Positions 1-28,645 of a DNA stretch of 32,000 bases are shown in pieces. The stretch lies in NCBI RefSeq assembly GCF_000012905.2, contig NC_007494.2:780001-812000 (forward strand). The letters run 5' to 3'. The translations under genes were made by a program, and so were the position numbers. Numbering within the stretch: the stretch's first letter is position 1; every line of letters begins with the position of its first letter. A model generated the notes under the pieces. The model had not been told where the DNA came from. It searched no databases and saw only the letters and a program-made list of their open reading frames with translations. This DNA is from Cereibacter sphaeroides 2.4.1 (GTDB lineage: Bacteria; Pseudomonadota; Alphaproteobacteria; Rhodobacterales; Rhodobacteraceae).

Positions 1-3000
1 ACGGCGCTCGTCACCGGGACCCATGTCGACGGGAACGGCGACAAGACCGAGGTCGAGGACGTCTCCGGCACCGACGCCGCGAACGACCTTCCGACCCGCA
101 GCGACGTCGAGGCCGCGCCCGCCATCGCGCTGGTGAAGACCGTCGACCTCTCGGCCCTCTCGAGCCCGGTCGCGGCGGGCGACGTGCTAAGCTACGGCTT
201 CGCCGTGACCAACACGGGCAACGTCACGCTCACGAATGTGACCGTGACCGACGACAGCCTCGCGGATCTCGTGCTGACGGGCGGCCCCATCGCCTCGCTC
301 GCGCCGAACGCCACCGACAGCACGAGCTACAGCGCGAGCTACACGCTGACCCAGGCCGACATCGACCGCGGCTTCGTCGAGAACACGGCGCTTTCCACCG
401 GCACCTACACCGACGGCGCAGGGGTCGAGACGGAGGTCGAGGACGCGTCGGGCACCGACACGAGCAACGACCTGCCCACGCGCGCCGATCTCGACGCCCT
501 GCCCTCCATCGCACTGGTCAAGACGGTCGACGCCTCGGCGGTCTCCTCTCCGGCGGCGGTGGGCGATCTGCTCAGCTACAGCTTCACGGTGACGAACACC
601 GGCAACGTGACGCTGACCGACGTGACGGTGACGGACGACAGCCTTGCCGACCTCGTGCTCGCGGGGGATCCGATCCCGACGCTCGCGCCGGGTGCGGCGG
701 ACGCCACCACCTACACCGCGACCTATGCGCTGAAACAGGCCGACATCGACCGCGGCTACGTCGAGAACACGGCACTTGTCACCGGCACCCACACCGATGG
801 CGCGGGCGTCGAGACGGAGGTCGAGGATATCTCCGGCACCGAGGCCACCAACGATACGGCGACGCGCGCCGATCTGGGGACCACTCCCTCGATCGCGCTG
901 GTGAAGGCCGTCGATCTTTCGGCCGTCTCCTCTCCGGCGGCGGTGGGCGACCTGCTCACCTACAGCTTCACGGTGACGAACACCGGCAACGTGACGCTGA
1001 CCGACGTGACGGTGAGCGACGACAGCCTCGCCGATCTGATCCTCGCCGGCGACCCGATCCCGTCGCTCGCGCCGGGTGCGACCGATGCCACCGCCTACAG
1101 CGCCACCTATGCGCTGAAGCAGGCCGACATCGACCGCGGCTTCGTCGAGAACACCGCGCTCGTCACCGGCATCCACACCGATGGCGCAGGCGTCGAGACC
1201 GAGGTCGAGGACATCTCCGGCACCGAGGCCACCAACGACACGCTGACACGCGCCGATCTCGAGACCGCGCCCGCCCTCGCGCTGGTGAAGACTGTCGATG
1301 CTTCGGCCGTCTCCTCGCCGGCGGCGGTGGGTGAGCTGCTGACCTACAGCTTTGCCGTGACCAACACCGGCAACGTGACCCTGACCGGCGTCACCGTGAC
1401 GGACGACAGCCTCGCGGGTCTCGTGCTCGCGGGAAGCCCTGTCCCGACGCTCGCGCCGGGTGCGACCGATGCCACCGCCTACACCGCGACCTATGCGCTG
1501 ACGCAGGCGGACATCGACCGCGGCTTCGTCGAGAACACCGCGCTCGCCACCGGCACCTACACCGATGGCGCGGGGATCGAGACCGAGGTCGAGGACATCT
1601 CCGGCACCGAGGCCACCAACGACACGCCGACCCGCGCCGATCTGGACACCACGCCCTCCATCGCGCTGGTGAAGACGGTCGATGCTTCGGCGGTCTCCTC
1701 TCCGGCGGCGGTGGGCGATCTGCTCAGCTACAGCTTCACGGTGACGAACACCGGCAACGTGACCCTGACCGACGTGACCCTGAACGACGACAGCCTCGCG
1801 GATCTCGTGCTCACCGGCGGCCCGATCCCGTCGCTGGCACCGGGCGCGGCGGACGCCACGACCTACACGGCGAGCTATGCGCTGAAACAGGCGGACATCG
1901 ACCGCGGCTATGTCGAGAACACGGCGCTCGTTACCGGCACCCATACCGACGGCGCAGGGGTCGAGACCGAGGTCGAGGACATCTCCGGCACCGAGGCCAC
2001 CAACGACACGGTGACCCGCGCCGATCTGGGCACCGCGCCGGCCATCGTTCTGGTCAAGACGGTCGACGCCTCGGCGGTCTCCTCGCCGGCGGCGGTGGGC
2101 GATCTGCTCAGCTACAGCTTCACCGTGACCAACACCGGCAACGTGACGCTGACCGATGTGACCGTCACCGACGACAGCCTGCCGGGTCTCGTGCTCACCG
2201 GCGACCCGATCCCGTCGCTCGCACCGAATGCGACCGATGCCACCACCTACACGGCGAGCTATGCGCTGAAGCAGGCGGACATCGACCGCGGCTATGTCGA
2301 GAACACCGCGCTCGTCACCGGCACTCATACGGATGGCGCAGGGGTCGAGACCGAGGTCGAGGATATTTCCGGCACGGAGGCCACCAACGACACGCTGACG
2401 CGCGCCGATCTCGACGCCCTGCCCTCCATCGCGCTGGTCAAGGAGGTCGATGTCTCGGCCGTCTCCTCTCCGGCAGCGGTGGGCGACCTGCTCACCTACA
2501 GCTTCACGGTGACGAACACCGGCAACGTGACGCTGACGGATGTCACGGTGACGGACACGAGCCTGCCGGGCCTCACCCTCACGGGCGGGACCATTGCCAG
2601 CCTCGCTCCGAAGGCAAGCGACACCGCCACCTACACGGCGAGCTATGCGCTCACTCAGGAGGATCTCGACCGGGGCTTCGTCGAGAATACCGCGCGTGTG
2701 ACCGGCACCTATACCGACGGCACGGGCGGCGAAACCGAAGTCGAGGACATCTCCGGCACCGACGCGGGCAATGACACTCCCACCGAAGCCCTGATCGAGC
2801 CGGCCCCGGCCCTCGCGCTGGTGAAGACGGTTGATCTCTCGGGTCTCGGCACGCCGGCGGAAGTGGGCGAGGCGCTCACCTACAGCTTCACGGTGACCAA
2901 CACCGGCAATGTGACGCTGACGGATGTGACCGTGACGGACACGAGCCTGCCGGGCCTCGTCCTTACCGGCAGCCCGATCGCCCGCCTCGCCCCCGGCGAG

Positions 3001-5322
3001 AGCGACAGCACCGCCTACAGCGCGCGCTATGCCCTGACGCAGGAGGATCTCGACCGCGGCTTCGTCGAGAACACGGCGCTGGCCACCGGCCTCCATACGG
3101 ACGGCACCGGGCGGGAGACGCAGGTCGAGGATGTCTCGGGCACCGACGTCGGTCGCGACGATCCGACCGTGGCTCCGGTGGGGCAGGCGCCGGCCGTGGC
3201 GCTGGTCAAGGCGGTGGACGCTTCGGCCGTCTCCTCGCCGCCGGCGGTGGGCGACCCGCTGACCTACAGCTTCACCGTGACGAACACGGGCAGCGTGACG
3301 CTGACGGACGTGACCGTCACCGACGACAGCCTTCCGGGCCTCGTGCTGGCGGGCAGTCCCATCCCGCGCCTTGCGCCGGGCGAGAGCGACAGCACGACCT
3401 ACAGCGCCCGCTACCTGCTGACGCAGGAGGATCTCGATCAGGGTCGGGTGTCGAACACGGCGCGCGTCACCGGCAGCTACCGGGCGCCCGACGGCTCGGC
3501 CGACACCGTCACCGACATCTCGGGCACCGAGATCGAGAACGACGATCCGACCGACACCGAGTTCGCGCCCGTCCCCGGCATCGCGCTCGTGAAGACGGCC
3601 GATGTCTCGGGCATCGGCAGCCCGGCGGCCATCGGCGAATTGGTCCGCTACAGCTTCACCGTGACGAACACGGGCAACGTGACGCTCGCGGATGTGACGG
3701 TGAGCGACACGAGCCTGCCGGGCCTCGTCCTGAGCGGCAGCCCGATCGGGCGGCTTGCTCCGGGCGAGAGCGACAGCGTGACCTACAGTGCCGCCTATGC
3801 GCTGACGCAGGCAGACCTCGACCGCGGCGTCATCGAGAACACGGCCCGGGCCACGGGCGCGTATCGCGGGCCGGATGGCGAACCGGGCACGGTCGAGGAC
3901 ATCTCGGGCACCGAGGCGGAGAACGATGATCCGACCCTGTCGCTCGTGCCGCAGACGCCCGGGATCGCCCTCGTCAAGGAGGTGGCGGACGAGTCCGTCA
4001 GCACGCGCCCGGCCCTGGGCGACGAGCTTCTCTACCGCTTCACGGTGACGAACACCGGCAACGTGACCCTCACCGACGTCACCCTGACCGACGATCTGGC
4101 GGGCGCGGTGGTCTCGGGCGGCCCCATCGCCGCACTGGCGCCGGGCGAGACCGACAGCACCACCTTCACGGCACGCTATGCGCTGACGGCGGCGGATCTC
4201 GAGCGGGGGCAGGTCGCGAACACGGCCCGCGTCAGCGGGACCAATCCGGGCGATCCCGACACGCCGGTGACGGATGTCTCGGGCACCGAGGTGGGCAATG
4301 ACACGCCGACCGTGGTCGAGCTCGACGTGCCCACGGATGTGACGGCCACCAAGACCGCCAGCCCCGAGCGCGTGGTCATCGGCGAGACCGTCTCCTATGT
4401 GCTGGCCTTCACCAACGACGCGCCGCGCTCGATGCGCGAGGTGGTGCTGGTCGACCGGATGCCCGACGGCCTCGTCTATACGCCCGGCAGCGCCACGCTC
4501 GACGGCACGCCTCTGGAGCCCGAAGTCAGCGGCCGCTTCCTGCGCTGGCAGGCGGACACCCTGCCCGCGGGCGGCACGATCACCGTGCGCTTCGCCGCGC
4601 GCGTGCTGGGGGCTGCGCCCTACGGGCCGCTCACCAACAAGACCTGGCTCCTCGACCGCACGGGCCAGCGCTCCTCGAACGTGGCGGAGGCCGTGGTGAT
4701 CCGCGAGCCCGAGCATGTGTTCGAATGCGCCGACATCATCGGGAAGGTCTTCGACGACCGGAACATGAACGGCTATCAGGATCCGATCGACGGCGCGGCC
4801 CACGGCCGCGGCGCCGAGGCCGAAGAGCCGGGCATCCCCGATGTGCGTCTCGCGACGCCGAACGGGACCCTGATCCAGACCGACAAGTTCGGCCGCTTCC
4901 ACGTCCCCTGCGCCGAGCTACCCGGCCAGACCGGCGCGAACTTCACGCTGAAGCTCGACACCCGCTCCCTGCCCTCGGGCTACCGGGTGACGACCGAGAA
5001 CCCGCGCACGATCCGCGTCACGCCGGGCAAGATGGCCAAGCTGAACTTCGGCGCGGCTCTGGGCCGGGTGGTGCGGCTCGACCTGACGGCGGCGGCCTTC
5101 GCGGACGGCCGGCCGACCGCGGCCTTCGCCCGGGCGCTCGAGCAGACGGCGGCAAGCCTCGGCGATGCGCCGGTGGTGGTGCGGATCAGCACCCGGCAGG
5201 ACGCCGGCGGCGCGGGCGCGGCAAAAGCGCGGCTCGATGCGGCCGAGGCGCTGGTGCGCAAGGCCTGGAAGGGTCGGGCCGGGCCGGTGCTCATCGAACG
5301 CACGATCCAGCGGGACCAGTAA
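1..5322 (+). CDS. Giant repetitive cell-surface protein (DUF11 / 'conserved repeat domain' type), 5'-truncated by the window edge
   Basis: Frame 1 is open from base 1 (TALVTGTHVDGNGDKTEVEDVSGTD... continues the repeat), so the GTG at 133 in the ORF track is internal. There are 11 in-register 128-aa units, each reading ...ALVK.VD.SAVSSPAAVGDLLxYSFTVTNTGNVTLTDVTVxDDSL...LAPG..D...Y.A.Y.L.Q.D.DRG.VENTA...G. A 12th divergent unit (VTATKTASPERVVIGETVSYVLAFTND) follows. Next is an SdrD/Cna-B-like segment (IGKVFDDRNMNGYQDP...GIPDVRLATPNGTLIQTDKFGRFHV) and an unassigned ~100-aa tail. Stop TAA is at 5320-5322. Confidence 0.9.
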   Translation, partial: TALVTGTHVDGNGDKTEVEDVSGTDAANDLPTRSDVEAAPAIALVKTVDLSALSSPVAAGDVLSYGFAVTNTGNVTLTNVTVTDDSLADLVLTGGPIASLAPNATDSTSYSASYTLTQADIDRGFVENTALSTGTYTDGAGVETEVEDASGTDTSNDLPTRADLDALPSIALVKTVDASAVSSPAAVGDLLSYSFTVTNTGNVTLTDVTVTDDSLADLVLAGDPIPTLAPGAADATTYTATYALKQADIDRGYVENTALVTGTHTDGAGVETEVEDISGTEATNDTATRADLGTTPSIALVKAVDLSAVSSPAAVGDLLTYSFTVTNTGNVTLTDVTVSDDSLADLILAGDPIPSLAPGATDATAYSATYALKQADIDRGFVENTALVTGIHTDGAGVETEVEDISGTEATNDTLTRADLETAPALALVKTVDASAVSSPAAVGELLTYSFAVTNTGNVTLTGVTVTDDSLAGLVLAGSPVPTLAPGATDATAYTATYALTQADIDRGFVENTALATGTYTDGAGIETEVEDISGTEATNDTPTRADLDTTPSIALVKTVDASAVSSPAAVGDLLSYSFTVTNTGNVTLTDVTLNDDSLADLVLTGGPIPSLAPGAADATTYTASYALKQADIDRGYVENTALVTGTHTDGAGVETEVEDISGTEATNDTVTRADLGTAPAIVLVKTVDASAVSSPAAVGDLLSYSFTVTNTGNVTLTDVTVTDDSLPGLVLTGDPIPSLAPNATDATTYTASYALKQADIDRGYVENTALVTGTHTDGAGVETEVEDISGTEATNDTLTRADLDALPSIALVKEVDVSAVSSPAAVGDLLTYSFTVTNTGNVTLTDVTVTDTSLPGLTLTGGTIASLAPKASDTATYTASYALTQEDLDRGFVENTARVTGTYTDGTGGETEVEDISGTDAGNDTPTEALIEPAPALALVKTVDLSGLGTPAEVGEALTYSFTVTNTGNVTLTDVTVTDTSLPGLVLTGSPIARLAPGESDSTAYSARYALTQEDLDRGFVENTALATGLHTDGTGRETQVEDVSGTDVGRDDPTVAPVGQAPAVALVKAVDASAVSSPPAVGDPLTYSFTVTNTGSVTLTDVTVTDDSLPGLVLAGSPIPRLAPGESDSTTYSARYLLTQEDLDQGRVSNTARVTGSYRAPDGSADTVTDISGTEIENDDPTDTEFAPVPGIALVKTADVSGIGSPAAIGELVRYSFTVTNTGNVTLADVTVSDTSLPGLVLSGSPIGRLAPGESDSVTYSAAYALTQADLDRGVIENTARATGAYRGPDGEPGTVEDISGTEAENDDPTLSLVPQTPGIALVKEVADESVSTRPALGDELLYRFTVTNTGNVTLTDVTLTDDLAGAVVSGGPIAALAPGETDSTTFTARYALTAADLERGQVANTARVSGTNPGDPDTPVTDVSGTEVGNDTPTVVELDVPTDVTATKTASPERVVIGETVSYVLAFTNDAPRSMREVVLVDRMPDGLVYTPGSATLDGTPLEPEVSGRFLRWQADTLPAGGTITVRFAARVLGAAPYGPLTNKTWLLDRTGQRSSNVAEAVVIREPEHVFECADIIGKVFDDRNMNGYQDPIDGAAHGRGAEAEEPGIPDVRLATPNGTLIQTDKFGRFHVPCAELPGQTGANFTLKLDTRSLPSGYRVTTENPRTIRVTPGKMAKLNFGAALGRVVRLDLTAAAFADGRPTAAFARALEQTAASLGDAPVVVRISTRQDAGGAGAAKARLDAAEALVRKAWKGRAGPVLIERTIQRDQ
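133..4356 (+). repeat. Tandem in-frame coding repeats, 11 units of exactly 384 bp
   Basis: The Val codon of the LVK motif falls at 133, 517, 901, 1285, 1669, 2053, 2437, 2821, 3205, 3589 and 3973, a constant 384-nt step that I checked against the sequence lines. The 5' units are about 90% identical at protein level by eye. The 3' units (from ~2437) shift to a QEDLDRG / PGESDS subtype and diverge progressively. Confidence 0.9.
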
Positions 5323-17113: not shown

Positions 17114-17137
17114 GGCGCGCGGCTCCCCCCGCGCGCC
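17114..17137 (+). terminator. GC hairpin after the ATPase gene
   Basis: GGCGCGCGG-ctcccc-CCGCGCGCC, a 9-bp stem, begins 8 nt after the TGA at 17104-17106. There is no strong U-tract. Confidence 0.4.
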
Positions 17138-17138
17138 G

Positions 17139-17342
17139 CTTCTGGCCGCTTGGACACAAGGTCCTCTCCAGCGTCTCCGTCCGGCGCGCAGGTGCGCCGC
17201 GGGCGGCTTCTGGCTGGCAGGATCCAAGGTCCCCGCAGCGCCTCGCTCCGGCGTGCAGGCGCCCCTGGGCGTCTCTTTCGGCTGGCCGCAATCCAAGGTC
17301 CAGCAACGCCTCGGCCCTGCACAGGATGCCCGCGCTGGTGCG
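17139..17342. repeat. Three tandem degenerate 68-bp intergenic repeats
   Basis: Units start at 17139, 17207 and 17275 (CTTCTGG / CTTCTGG / CTTTCGG). They share a core: CTTCTGGCyG..GGAy.CAAGGTCC...AGCGyCTC..TCCGGCGyGCAGG.GC.CC. A weaker fourth copy may lie near 17653-17710. Confidence 0.7.
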
Positions 17343-24805: not shown

Positions 24806-25435
24806 CGGGCTCCGGGCCGCGCCCGGAGGGTCCGGCGCAAGCCTGCGCGGACGCGGCGTCCCGCTCAGGTTCGCGCTCACGACCGGCGTACGGCGGCCGG
24901 GAAGCGCGACCTTCGGAAGCCCTCTGCACGATGCTGCTCCGGTCAGGCGCCAGCACGACGCCGGAGCGGTCCTCCGCCTTGCCCGGCACAGGAGGGGCCG
25001 TCACCCCCTCCGGGGCACCATCGCGTCCGCCTCGCTCCACGGCGCCGGACAGGTCCACTTCACGCCTGTCGGGAAGAGACCGTGCCGGCCGCAGGAGGCG
25101 GCCCGAGCCCGAACCGCCATCGGCTTCCGGCCCCTGCCGTCCGATGGCCGGATCCGCGACAGGAGAAGCCGCAGGCGGCCGACCTGATCCGCTGCGCCCC
25201 ACACCCGCCATCTGCACATTTTCGGTAACGGGCGCGAGTCGGGCCTCTCCCACCTCAACCTCAGGGTTTGTCCGCGGATTGAGGCGATCACCCACCAAGC
25301 TCATGTAATTACTTCTTTTTTTTACCAGATGCTCAAAAGACGGGCCTTCCAGCGCCTTACCTTTTGCGCAACTTGAGAATGGGACGGCAGCACGGTCTCC
25401 TCGCGCCGCAATCGGCTGCCCAGCGAAATGAGAAG

Positions 25436-26059
25436 ATGAAGCGTGGAACCCTCTCGGCCCTGACGGATCAGGAACCTCTGTTCCGTGATCTGGCTCCGGC
25501 CGGCTGCTATGTGGCGCTGAGGGTGGGGTTCCTCGCGCCAGAGGACGAATGCAACTTCTTTCCGTCGTCCTGGATCCGCCACTACACGGTTCAGGCCTTC
25601 GGCCTGCGCGATCCGCTGATCCGCTGGGCGGCCTCCGCAAACGGGGCCGCGCGCTGGAGCGCCGTCCATCTGCCCGACGAGGCGGGGGTGCTCGCCGCCT
25701 ACCGCCGTCATGGGCTGCGCTTCGGTTGCGTGATCGGCCTGCCCGCCCGCACCGCCCGCAGCCGCAAGCGGAGCTTCGGCCTCTTCGCCCGCAACGACCG
25801 CGAGATGACCAACCACGAGATCGCGACGCTCCGCGCGACACTGGCCGAGCTTCATGCCCCGAACCGCGACGCGCTCACCCCCAGTCAGGCGGAGGTCCTG
25901 CGGATGCTGAGCGAGGGCGTGCGCTACAAGGAGATCGCGCACCGTCTGGGCATCACCGAAGGCGCGGTGAAGGCCCGCTTCAAGGCCGCCTGCGATCGCC
26001 TGGGCGCCCGGACCGCGGTGCAGGCCGCCAACATCGCCCAGCGCCGCGGGCTGCTCTGA
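25436..26059 (+). CDS. LuxR-family quorum-sensing-type regulator (autoinducer-binding domain plus LuxR HTH)
   Basis: The N-terminal domain carries W-x3-Y-x8-DP-x13-W (WIRHYTVQAFGLRDPLIRWAASANGAARW, nt 25571-25657). The C-terminal part is LTPSQAEVLRMLSEGVRYKEIAHRLGITEGAVKARFKAACDRLG. The start is uncertain, with in-frame ATGs at 25364, 25379 and 25436. Confidence 0.8.
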   Translation: MKRGTLSALTDQEPLFRDLAPAGCYVALRVGFLAPEDECNFFPSSWIRHYTVQAFGLRDPLIRWAASANGAARWSAVHLPDEAGVLAAYRRHGLRFGCVIGLPARTARSRKRSFGLFARNDREMTNHEIATLRATLAELHAPNRDALTPSQAEVLRMLSEGVRYKEIAHRLGITEGAVKARFKAACDRLGARTAVQAANIAQRRGLL

Positions 26060-26161
26060 CCGCTGCGGGCGGGCCGCGCGCTCCGCGCGCCGCAACGTCG
26101 CGCGGAACAGGCCGGCCGGCCTCACGTTGATCCGGCTCATTCAGATTGAAAGGGCCTTTCG

Positions 26162-26608
26162 ATGAGTAACCAGTCCTATACCCCCGATACCGCCGCGGCC
26201 GACGCGCTCGAGACGCTGCATGACCGCACCGTCGACGTGCTCGCAGGCTTCGACACGATGGTGGAGAAGGCGGAGCCCGAGTTCCTTCCGCTCGCCCGCC
26301 GGTTCCAGGAGCTGCATCGCCGCCAGTCCTCCGAGATCGCGGCGCTTCTGTCGGTTGCCGGCCGGAGCCCCGGGGACGACGGCACCTTCATGTCCACCGT
26401 GAACCGCGCCGTGGTTTCGCTGCGGGCGATCTTCGACAAGATCGACGAGGATGTGATCCAGCAGATCGAAAGCGGCGAACAGAACGTCATCGACGCCTTC
26501 GACGAAGCGATTGCCCAACCGCAACCGCCCGAGGTCGCGACGAAGCTGAGCGAACTTCGCCAGGAACTGGTGCGGCTGCTCGAGGAGGCGCGCGCGGCCA
26601 CGTCCTGA
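26162..26608 (+). CDS. PA2169/DUF2383-like four-helix-bundle (ferritin-like) protein
   Basis: 148-aa all-helical acidic protein with AAAGGG 8 nt before ATG 26162. Pattern: LETLHDRTVDVLAGFDTMVEKAE...FQELHRRQSSEIAALL...IESGEQNVIDAFDEAI. The family call is by resemblance only. Confidence 0.6.
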   Translation: MSNQSYTPDTAAADALETLHDRTVDVLAGFDTMVEKAEPEFLPLARRFQELHRRQSSEIAALLSVAGRSPGDDGTFMSTVNRAVVSLRAIFDKIDEDVIQQIESGEQNVIDAFDEAIAQPQPPEVATKLSELRQELVRLLEEARAATS

Positions 26609-26630
26609 CGAGGCCCCGACCGGCGGCACC

Positions 26631-26718
26631 TAGAGACCTAGAGACCTAGAGACCTAGAGACCTAGAGACCTAGAGACCTAGAGACCTAGAGACCTAGAGA
26701 CCTAGAGACCTAGAGACC
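26631..26718. repeat. Perfect octanucleotide microsatellite, (TAGAGACC) x 11
   Basis: I counted unit by unit from 26631 to 26718 and found no mismatch. A partial ACC precedes it at 26628-26630. It is intergenic and gives stop codons in all six frames. Confidence 0.97.
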
Positions 26719-26844
26719 TGAGGAAGGCCCTCGCGGTCCCTGCGTCAATATGCAGGGGCGCGGCCGGGTTCAGCACGGTCGCCGGACTGCTAGGATGGAC
26801 ACCGGTCTCGGAACGGAGGCCGGTGTTCTGTATGGGTAAGCGGT

Positions 26845-27216
26845 ATGGCGCGTTGGACGATCGGGCTCGCGGCCGGAGCATTGGTCGCGCTTCTGGCTCA
26901 CGGGGCCGGAGCGCAGGAGGATCCGGCAACAGCAGCCGGTGCGGATGCTCTGCCGGAAAGCGCAGTGGTGCGAGGGGCGGATCGCGAAGCCGGGCCAACA
27001 GTGGGCCTGCCCGATGAGGCCACGGCCAACGCGGCCGATCTCACATCCGGCGCGCCGGGGACGGCGGACGCCGCGGCGGACGAAAAGCTCGAGGATCCGG
27101 CGGCCACCGACGCGTCGCCGCGTCGAACCCTCGCCGTCGGGCTGGCCGTGGCGCTGGCGTCCCTTCTGCTGCTCATGGGCCTTCAGGCACGCAGTATCCC
27201 GCAGCGTCGGCGCTGA
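26845..27216 (+). CDS. Small secreted acidic Ala/Asp/Pro-rich protein with a C-terminal TM helix and Arg tail (sorting-signal-like)
   Basis: Signal peptide: MARWTIGLAAGALVALLAHGAGA/QED. Low-complexity acidic middle. C-terminus: TLAVGLAVALASLLLLMGLQARSIPQRRR-stop. The RBS is weak. Third codon positions are moderately G/C-rich. Confidence 0.5.
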   Translation: MARWTIGLAAGALVALLAHGAGAQEDPATAAGADALPESAVVRGADREAGPTVGLPDEATANAADLTSGAPGTADAAADEKLEDPAATDASPRRTLAVGLAVALASLLLLMGLQARSIPQRRR

Positions 27217-27546
27217 GCTTCTGACCGGGCGGCCGGACACGCGCCCCGGGAGACAGAGGCCGCGGCCGGCACTTCCGGGACCACACAGCGACGCGGACGG
27301 TGGAGGCTGGCTCGCGCCATCGGCTGCAGGCGGCGACCGGCACGATCCGGTGCACATAGCCTCCGCACCGCCTCCCTGCCCGGCGCGACGCAGCTGATCC
27401 TGACCCTTGCGCGCCATGCGCCGAGACCCCTCAGGACATTTTCACGAACCGACAGCGCAGGAGGCAGAACGACCGGAAATCGGTCATCGCCCCTCCCGGA
27501 CCTGAATGGCGCTTTACAGCAGCGGGAGATTCGGCCTAGCGTTCAG

Positions 27547-27573
27547 ATAAACCAGTTTACTAAACCGATTTAC
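27547..27573. promoter_or_regulatory. Two adjacent LacI-type operator-like palindromes upstream of the LacI-family gene
   Basis: ATAAACCAGTTTAC (27547-27560) and CTAAACCGATTTAC (27560-27573). Each matches the ideal palindrome GTAAACCGGTTTAC at 12 of 14 positions. The second has the central CG typical of LacI-family operators. The pair ends 31 nt before ATG 27605, in an AT-rich patch. Confidence 0.55.
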
Positions 27574-27604
27574 TTCGGGATCGGGATCATCTGGACGAGG
27601 TAGA

Positions 27605-28645
27605 ATGGCCAATCTTCAGGATGTGGCGCGGGCGGCGAACGTGTCGAAGACGACCGTTTCGCGCTATCTGAACGGCTCGCTCGAGCTGCCTGCGCGCACG
27701 GCCGAGGCCATCGACACGGCCATCCGCACCCTGAACTACAGCCCCAATCCCCATGCCCGGCGGCTGAGCCTCGGACGGTCGGATACGATCGCGCTCGTGG
27801 TGCCCGACATTGCCACGCCCTTCTTCGCCACCTTCGTGGCGGCGGTCGAGGCCGAGGCCGATGCGCGGGGCCTGTCGCTCGCGCTGCATGCCACGCTGAA
27901 CCGCCCCGACCGCGAACTCAAATATCTCGATCATATCCGGCAGGGCCATGCCGACGGGCTGATCTTCATCACCAACCATGCGGGCTCGCGGGCACTGGCC
28001 GAGAAGGTCAACAGCGGCGGTCCCTGCGTGGTGGTGGACGAGGACATCGCCGAGGCACGGGTGCCGAAACTCTTCTGCGACAATGCCGAGGGCGGGCGGC
28101 TTGCGGGCCGCCGGCTCGCCCGCGCGGGCCACCGCCATGTGCTCTTCATCGGCGGCGTCGACCAGATGATCTCGGGCGCGCGCCGCTATGCGGGCTTCCT
28201 CGAGGGGATGCGCGAGATCGCAGGCCCGGACGTGCGCATCGAACGCTCCTGCGGGCCCTACACGTTCGAGGCGGGACGCGCCGCGGCGCAGGCCTTCGTC
28301 GCCCGCGGGCCGGACCGCCCCACCGCGATCTTCGCCACCTCGGATGAGCTCACCATCGGGCTCTACGAGGTGCTCCGCGAGGCGGGCCTGTCGATCCCGC
28401 GCGACGTCTCCGTCGTGGGCTTCGACGATGTGGGCCCGCTCCATCTTTTCGCACCGGCCGTGACAGCGGTGCGGCAACCGGTTCGGGATCTGGGCAGGCG
28501 CGCCCTCGAGCTGCTGCTCGCCCCCCCGCCGGTCGACCCCGAAAGGCTCCCGCCAGAGGAGCTGCTTCCTGTCACGCTGATCGAGCGGGAGTCCGTTGCA
28601 CCGCCGGTCGGACAGACCAGACGCAACACAAACAGCGAGGATTGA
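27605..28645 (+). CDS. LacI-family transcriptional regulator
   Basis: N-terminal HTH: MANLQDVARAANVSKTTVSRYLNG. Periplasmic-binding-protein-like effector domain: ALVVPDIATPFF...VVGFDD. Confidence 0.9.
   Translation: MANLQDVARAANVSKTTVSRYLNGSLELPARTAEAIDTAIRTLNYSPNPHARRLSLGRSDTIALVVPDIATPFFATFVAAVEAEADARGLSLALHATLNRPDRELKYLDHIRQGHADGLIFITNHAGSRALAEKVNSGGPCVVVDEDIAEARVPKLFCDNAEGGRLAGRRLARAGHRHVLFIGGVDQMISGARRYAGFLEGMREIAGPDVRIERSCGPYTFEAGRAAAQAFVARGPDRPTAIFATSDELTIGLYEVLREAGLSIPRDVSVVGFDDVGPLHLFAPAVTAVRQPVRDLGRRALELLLAPPPVDPERLPPEELLPVTLIERESVAPPVGQTRRNTNSED

Follow-up and report, generated by a model that had tools for sequence, protein, structure and literature searches.

A hypervariable octanucleotide repeat between a DUF2383 gene and an ORFan on chromosome II of Cereibacter sphaeroides

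What is a perfect tandem array of an 8-bp unit doing between two genes of a GC-rich alphaproteobacterium: does its length set the expression of a neighbouring gene, or is it a product of DNA replication that the cell can do without? The question is raised by a locus on chromosome II of Cereibacter (Rhodobacter) sphaeroides 2.4.1 (ATCC 17023), where 11 copies of the octamer TAGAGACC lie between a gene for a DUF2383/PA2169-family protein and a gene for a 123-residue protein. We analysed this array in a 32-kb stretch of the chromosome (the window, to whose positions all coordinates refer) and at orthologous loci of related strains. We regard it as close to certain that the array is a hypervariable variable-number tandem repeat (VNTR), i.e. 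an octanucleotide microsatellite, and we consider it probable that this slipped-strand VNTR acts as a dispensable spacer and has no significant regulatory role.

The array and its copy number in C. sphaeroides

In strain 2.4.1, 11 exact TAGAGACC units follow one another back to back at 26631-26718, and an exact pattern search detected none elsewhere in the 32-kb window. Tandem Repeats Finder delimits the repeat at 26628-26719 with a period of 8, 11.5 copies, 100% matches, no insertions or deletions (indels) and a score of 184; the bases preceding the first full unit are the partial unit ACC. In shuffled windows, 0.23 matches to TAGAGACC are expected instead of the 11 observed, and none of 100 shuffles reached 11. 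The unit has a GC content of 50%, while that of the window is 69%. The first full unit begins 22 nt after the DUF2383 stop codon (26606-26608), and 126 nt separate the last unit from the ATG at 26845 of the open reading frame (ORF) for the 123-residue protein. With CTAG being a palindrome and the unit length sharing no factor with 3, the array places TAG in all six frames, and two mechanically called minus-strand ORFs (26141-26629 and 26702-26998) stop or start at its edges. CTAG is strongly avoided in the DNA of the window, with 15 occurrences versus ~91 expected from base composition, 11 of them inside the array and four outside. An earlier reading of these letters that used no database searches (the sequence-only reading) had described the mutation-free copies with their partial ACC, the distances to the two neighbouring genes, the lower GC content of the unit and the stops in all six frames with ORFs breaking at the array edges, and the repeat finder, the exact search and the coordinates bear out all of these points.

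The same reading had proposed that the array is a substrate for slipped-strand mispairing and had suggested that its copy number be compared between strains. This comparison shows that copy number does vary, from 5 to 18 units in 8-bp steps. Specifically, orthologous loci in independent C. sphaeroides assemblies contain 5, 8, 9, 11, 13, 14 or 18 units: five in the CP047032 and CP047038 alleles, two TGGAGACC + 6 in CP033443, one TGGAGGCC + 8 in CP033447, one TGGAGACC + 10 in WS8N (CM001162) and KD131 (CP001151), 11 TAGAGACC in the window, 2 + 11 in CM125965, 14 in QWGP01000009, and 1 + 17 in ATCC 17029 (CP000578). All length differences among these strains are multiples of 8 bp and the flanks are intact. 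The flanks are 98-100% identical, with 25-50 single-nucleotide polymorphisms (SNPs) in 2.8 kb (1-1.8% apart). Moreover, the variant units TGGAGACC and TGGAGGCC are confined to the 5' edge of the array, as expected if slippage homogenises the interior.

Two of these alleles suggest variation within a single lineage. CP047032 and CP047038 have five units rather than 11, yet there are no SNPs between them and the window over 11.8 kb and, therefore, they belong to the 2.4.1 lineage. Over the same 11.8 kb, CP047032 (L004/L009) has 23 and CP047038 (L005/L010) nine 1-bp indels relative to the window, and called genes, among them the LuxR-type, LacI-family and ABC-transporter genes, are split or merged by these indels. 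The annotation of the two assemblies at this locus is unreliable. A loss of six units in a laboratory subline of 2.4.1 seems to us more likely than a misreport by an error-prone assembly.

Could the array as a whole be an artefact of assembly or a vector, as the sequence-only reading had allowed, or of cloning? Short-read contigs indeed break at the array: several end inside it (L007, L008, L011, L013-L018 and L046), and in one assembly the whole of chromosome II is a single contig that ends there. However, the array sits between identical flanks in at least nine independent C. sphaeroides assemblies made with several technologies, and the allelic series fits the phylogeny. An artefact is thereby refuted. 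A search of PLSDB for further chromosome II alleles gave no match.

Turnover of the repeat unit in the sister clade

The comparison covers 16 alleles and includes, in addition to C. sphaeroides, its sister clade, which comprises C. johrii, 'f. sp. denitrificans' and related strains and is ~10% divergent from C. sphaeroides in the flanks. In this clade, both the number and the sequence of the units differ between strains. Three strains (CP147413, CP036420 and QMCC01000006) have one unit (e.g. CCAAGAGG) adjoining CCAGAAGAAGGCCC, the single-unit state of the clade being CCAAGAGG beside CCAGAAGAAGG; L042 has two units, PHOB01000054 six CCAAGAGG, JBNGEX010000007 about nine CCAGGAGG, and PZZW01000006 a mixed CCAGGAGG/CCAGGGGG array for which Tandem Repeats Finder reports 6.8 copies with 93% matches. 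The units can be aligned in register, as CC-AA/AG-GRG-G in the sister clade versus CC-TG/TA-GAG-A in C. sphaeroides. Thus, the arrays are homologous in position and origin, and their variants expanded independently. The 3' end of the array in the window is a degenerate terminal unit, TGAGGAAGGCC (26719-26729), which the 16-allele comparison identifies as a remnant of a polypurine proto-repeat; its counterpart in array-free strains is CCAGAAGAAGGCC.

This turnover bears directly on whether the octamer itself is needed. The LuxR-type, DUF2383 and downstream genes are all retained in the three single-unit strains, and the downstream block and the 123-residue gene are intact in every sister-clade allele whose contig reaches them. 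In C. sediminicola, the LuxR-DUF2383 pair is kept, while the array and the 123-residue gene are both missing. Because the unit is not conserved and because single-unit strains and the array-free C. sediminicola exist, the array is dispensable, and a sequence-specific function conserved across these lineages can be ruled out. The sequence-only reading had also raised the idea of a translational insulator that blocks all six frames. The sister-clade units do not contain a stop codon in any frame, and the TAG of C. sphaeroides is a single G-to-A step from TGGAGACC, a unit that survives at the 5' edge in most strains; the insulator idea is thus not supported, and there is no conserved requirement for stop codons.

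The same comparison speaks against an array of protein-binding sites, a second function that had been proposed on the basis of the nearby regulator gene. In this explanation, the units would be operators of the LuxR-type protein or sites phased at 8 bp for a ribbon-helix-helix protein. A LuxR-family gene does lie 570 bp upstream (25364-26059, plus strand; Pfam Autoind_bind, 5e-9, and GerE helix-turn-helix, 2e-8; ABA81293), and an 8-bp tandem period fits the known ribbon-helix-helix arrays: the operators and centromeres bound by such proteins (MetJ met boxes, omega heptads and ParG sites) are contiguous 7-8-bp repeats of 2-10 units that are conserved together with the cognate protein. By contrast, the unit at this locus changes between sister lineages, from TAGAGACC to CCAGGAGG, CCAAGAGG or CCAGGGGG, even though the LuxR-type proteins of both lineages fall into one 90% identity cluster, and the array is absent or reduced to a single unit in three strains, and absent in C. 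sediminicola, all of which keep the LuxR-type gene. Furthermore, the unit is not palindromic, whereas LuxR-type boxes are ~20-bp palindromes, and the one candidate for such a box lies beside the array and not within it. A Pfam scan of the six ORFs nearest the array, and of those ORFs only, returned no ribbon-helix-helix domain. We therefore consider a protein-binding array of either kind highly improbable.

From the allelic series, we infer the following history. The common ancestor of C. sphaeroides and C. johrii would already have carried a polypurine proto-repeat, CC-RR-GAG-R followed by CCAGAAGAAGG, 3' of its DUF2383 gene. Replication slippage, possibly together with unequal recombination, would have made the array hypermutable, letting it grow and shrink by whole 8-bp units while keeping its interior homogeneous. 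Separate unit variants would have expanded independently in each lineage, and TAGAGACC, one G-to-A step from TGGAGACC, would have prevailed in C. sphaeroides proper. The resulting array would lie in the 3' untranslated or read-through region of DUF2383 and upstream of the conserved control block of the next gene, where its sequence would have no specific role and its copy number would set only the length of a spacer, with at most a weak graded effect on expression.

Position of the array relative to control elements and transcripts

Whether a change in copy number can affect the downstream gene depends on what it moves apart. Between the clades, conservation of the 126 nt that follow the array is ~91%, with long invariant runs, while the 22 nt between the DUF2383 stop codon and the array are poorly conserved; comparing C. 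sphaeroides with the sister clade revealed no conserved element 5' of the array other than this stop codon. Three candidate elements lie in the conserved block. The first is a 20-bp palindrome, CCCTGCGTCAATATGCAGGG (26738-26757; fold energy -21.5 kcal/mol), which has the lux-box geometry CCTG-N10-CAGG and can also form an RNA hairpin. The window contains no other match to this pattern, though chance alone would yield ~1.3. Of the 14 alleles listed, 13 share an identical core and one has a C-to-T change. We suggest this palindrome as a candidate operator of the 123-residue gene at which the solo LuxR-type regulator encoded two genes upstream might bind. The second is a candidate promoter of the same gene, TTCAGC-N16-TAGGAT (26769-26796, plus strand), recognised by reading the sequence. 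It is a weak match (3/6 and 4/6); neither the two hexamers nor the adjoining bases differ between C. sphaeroides and the C. johrii clade, and one position in the spacer is variable. The third is a stem-loop of 11-13 bp followed by UCUGUAU (26797-26828, plus strand; -25.3 kcal/mol, z-score -4.7), the stem of which changes at one pair, from C-G to U-G, and is otherwise invariant, whereas loop and U-rich tail differ between clades; it could serve the DUF2383 transcript as a weak intrinsic terminator or attenuator, or else form a hairpin at the 5' end of the downstream mRNA. A scan with the sigma-70 consensus reported no promoter, TTCAGC-N16-TAGGAT included, and the corresponding terminator scan found none between the DUF2383 stop codon and the array, its sole match being on the minus strand inside the DUF2383 coding sequence and disregarded; these negatives weigh little because the same scans also missed an obvious bulged terminator in another genome (L064, see below).

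The palindrome, the candidate -35 and the first terminator-like hairpin begin 19, 50 and 78 nt beyond the array, respectively. In other words, the array precedes every recognisable control element of the 123-residue gene, and gain or loss of units therefore leaves the spacing between these elements unchanged. In a contingency locus, the repeat would separate the -35 from the -10 or a regulator site from the promoter, or would be part of the 5' untranslated region (UTR); provisionally, and as judged from in silico anatomy, the array occupies none of these positions.

These observations have to be set against the proposal that the locus is nevertheless a contingency locus in which copy number tunes transcription of the 123-residue gene, in a graded or periodic manner, because repeat length would set the spacing, the helical phase or the flexibility of the DNA between upstream elements, or transcription reading through from the DUF2383 promoter, and the lux-box-like operator with its promoter. 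Hypervariability extends to very close strains, and the array lies 19 nt from the palindrome and 50 nt from the candidate -35; the product of the putative target looks exported and has a fast-evolving middle region; all C. sphaeroides sensu stricto strains keep at least five units; and expansions recur at this site. A precedent for a tract upstream of the core promoter, rather than between the -35 and -10, is nadA of Neisseria meningitidis, in which a TAAA tract lies between the promoter and defined sites for a regulator and for IHF. However, nadA differs from the locus described here in that no recognisable element lies 5' of the C. sphaeroides array and, thus, there is no pair of elements to be respaced. 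Moreover, neither the candidate -35/-10 nor the 5' UTR includes the array, single-unit strains have the gene and its control block intact, and the copy numbers in C. sphaeroides span all helical phases with no preferred class. Consequently, promoter-spacing phase variation by this array appears unlikely from its anatomy, and we consider a contingency role in the broader, graded or periodic sense unlikely as well.

The same octamer occurs in other taxa, which provides a second view of what such arrays require. A genome scan for (TAGAGACC)3, which used one genome per species, returned six unrelated taxa; C. sphaeroides itself was not among them, and the scan is, therefore, uninformative on other loci in this species. 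One of the six is a Rhodobacterales strain, 'Maritimibacter alkaliphilus' SY-2-18, which has 12 perfect copies (L020 192-287, minus strand). In addition, Pseudooceanicola sp. 502str34 has ~24 (L064 3436-3631) next to a response regulator that is 99% identical to that of SY-2-18. The species label of SY-2-18 appears taxonomically doubtful, its nearest relatives being Pseudooceanicola. With 12 versus ~24 copies beside response regulators of 99% identity, this Pseudooceanicola-like array is also hypervariable. Its flanking genes are convergent, with 224 nt between the response-regulator gene and the array, and a strong intrinsic terminator (-32.5 kcal/mol, U8 tail) follows 11 nt beyond its end. 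This placement, with no promoter downstream, excludes a role as a promoter element in these strains, and such arrays can thus persist without one. In both the Pseudooceanicola and the C. sphaeroides arrays, GGAGACC precedes the repeats and the terminal unit contains an AAG insertion. We considered homology of the two arrays and rejected it as unproven, given the local origin evident from the allelic series and the presence of AG-rich variants next to unrelated arrays.

Beyond Rhodobacterales, scans of metagenomes and viral sequences gave sporadic short arrays in unrelated, mostly lower-GC contigs. In viral contigs, TAGAGACC gave three matches versus 0, 1, 1 and 0 for four composition-matched control octamers, numbers that are too small to establish enrichment. 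Related octamers with a GAG core (CTGGAGAG, GGGACCTA and similar) were present in unrelated taxa among the scan matches, which suggests that GAG-core octamers are generally prone to slip rather than sharing ancestry.

The Pseudooceanicola-like arrays also bear on a possible function at the level of RNA. Here, a transcribed, unstructured (UAGAGACC)n in the 3' UTR of DUF2383 would serve an RNA-binding protein, an RNase or a small RNA as multivalent platform or sponge, or would govern the stability of the mRNA, and its counterpart in Pseudooceanicola would be a 3' UTR or a small RNA that ends at the terminator. A transcript into the array is plausible. The motif GGAAC-N16-CGTT of the ECF/EcfG promoter class (26104-26128, plus strand; recognised by eye), 34 nt upstream of the DUF2383 start, is probably its promoter; no terminator was seen between the DUF2383 stop codon and the array, the first terminator-like hairpin being the one 78 nt past it. 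The fold centroid predicts the single strand of the array to be unpaired, with no stable fold, and in the Pseudooceanicola-like strains the octamer is on the sense strand just ahead of the terminator. On the other hand, C. sphaeroides and the C. johrii clade have different units, several strains lack the array, the Rfam covariance models gave no match at E <= 1 in the region 25900-27700, and a common orientation in two cases is a 50% coincidence. A role of the array in RNA thus strikes us as very unlikely.

Several observations weigh against regarding the array as a dispensable spacer. Each of the nine C. sphaeroides sensu stricto strains has five or more units, with no collapse to one or two, and at least four unit variants have expanded at one site; the retention and the recurrent expansions could reflect selection for the array as well as a mutational hotspot. 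The product of the downstream gene, fast-evolving and secreted or anchored as it appears, resembles the typical cargo of a contingency locus. Recurrence of the identical octamer in a second lineage of Rhodobacterales keeps an RNA-level or otherwise selected role alive with a small probability. The five-unit alleles come from the indel-rich assemblies CP047032 and CP047038, and the change within the 2.4.1 lineage could be a consensus error. Finally, the anatomy was judged in silico, and the array may yet have a regulatory effect. Because at least five units are retained, expansions recur at the site and the octamer recurs in Pseudooceanicola-like strains, we keep open, as a decidedly unlikely alternative, that the array is a selected tunable element rather than a neutral by-product of slippage: either a contingency-type spacer through which a free-living phototroph would vary the expression of a fast-evolving envelope protein controlled by a solo LuxR-type regulator, or a transcribed (UAGAGACC)n platform that would have arisen in 3'-UTR position in two lineages of Rhodobacterales and would bind a conserved factor.

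Precedents, neighbouring genes and significance

Among known systems, the HOOF-Print loci of Brucella appear to be the closest analogue of the slipped-strand VNTR described here, and the hmwA genes of Haemophilus the closest functional precedent for a contingency role. The Haemophilus repeats are between the promoter and the coding region, and their copy number grades expression. By contrast, the C. sphaeroides array is 5' of all conserved promoter-like elements, a placement known here from sequence alone. Otherwise, the two systems are alike in having tandem 7- or 8-bp units of strain-variable copy number upstream of a gene, which encodes a surface protein in Haemophilus and a putatively exported one in C. 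sphaeroides: H. influenzae hmw1A and hmw2A carry the 7-bp unit ATCTTTC and, in biogroup aegyptius, the 8-bp unit GCATCATC, in 12-15 copies (PMC3309571). The HOOF-Print loci are likewise perfect head-to-tail 8-bp arrays in an alphaproteobacterium and are hypervariable between close strains; their variation has been attributed to slipped-strand mispairing, and they have no known function and are useful for strain typing (PMC1183211). They differ from the array in C. sphaeroides, a free-living phototroph with 69% GC, in the sequence of the unit and in that one 8-bp unit occupies at least eight loci, whereas a single locus is known here from the 32-kb window and its orthologues. In the literature searched, we found no paper on this array, on VNTRs in R. 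sphaeroides or on DUF2383 in sphaeroides. Thus, the suggestion in the sequence-only reading that such a feature had not been described in free-living GC-rich alphaproteobacteria stands for this particular array, but not for the type of element, since octameric VNTRs are classical in the alphaproteobacterium Brucella. The array is a further octamer VNTR and not a new mechanism.

The genes around the array are all on the plus strand, and the products of the three that flank it correspond to ABA81293, ABA81294 and ABA81295 of 2.4.1. A GNAT-type Acetyltransf_6 gene is followed by the LuxR-family regulator, the DUF2383/PA2169 gene and the array, and then by the 123-residue ORFan, a LacI-family regulator and a sugar ABC transporter. 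The LuxR-family protein has 207 or 226 residues in database annotations and 231 in the mechanically called ORF. The DUF2383 gene (26162-26608, plus strand; ABA81294) encodes a predicted four-helix-bundle protein of 148 residues (Pfam DUF2383, 1e-26). GGAAC-N16-CGTT with equal spacing is also present in C. sediminicola (L047 2947-2971), and a DUF2383 paralogue adjoins phyR-nepR-ecfG in a Cereibacter metagenome-assembled genome (L052). This suggests that the DUF2383 gene is driven by a stress-responsive extracytoplasmic function (ECF) sigma factor, the assignment of which would follow from motif and gene context. DUF2383 homologues at 53-65% identity were also considered; they are paralogues in other contexts and were set aside as uninformative for the array.

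The 123-residue ORFan (26845-27216, plus strand; ABA81295) has a signal-peptide-like N-terminus and a conserved C-terminal hydrophobic helix that ends in RRR. Its termini are conserved, while the acidic Ala/Pro-rich middle varies between strains, and the indels between species are in-frame; from this pattern, we take the ORF to be a real gene. Searches of Pfam and NCBIfam assigned its product to no family; the protein has the look of a rapidly evolving exported one and is predicted to be secreted or anchored. Further downstream, two adjoining palindromes, TAAACC(A/G)(G/A)TTTAC, at 27548-27576 precede the LacI-family gene (27605-28645) by ~30 nt. C. johrii has them as well (L040 4348-4374), and they are probably LacI-type operators.

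The window also contains repeats of other kinds. At 4-3842, a 384-bp unit is repeated ~10 times with 79% identity inside a giant plus-strand ORF (133-5322) that extends past the window start and contains 11 DUF7507 and nine DUF11 immunoglobulin-like domains; judging by these domains, it is a very large repetitive surface-protein gene. At 17128-17301, a 68-bp unit unrelated to the octamer is present in 2.6 copies with 75% identity and may be one of the REP-like elements mentioned in the sequence-only reading.

For C. sphaeroides, the array provides an apparently undescribed and highly discriminating length marker for strains, and it may separate laboratory sublines of 2.4.1, with 11 versus five units. 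At the same time, it is a predictable break point in short-read assemblies of chromosome II. The series of 16 alleles, which runs from one unit to 18, represents a clean natural case of the birth and turnover of a microsatellite in a GC-rich bacterium. The array would gain biological importance only if copy number were found to change the expression of the neighbouring genes, in which case contingency-locus behaviour would be extended to a free-living phototroph.

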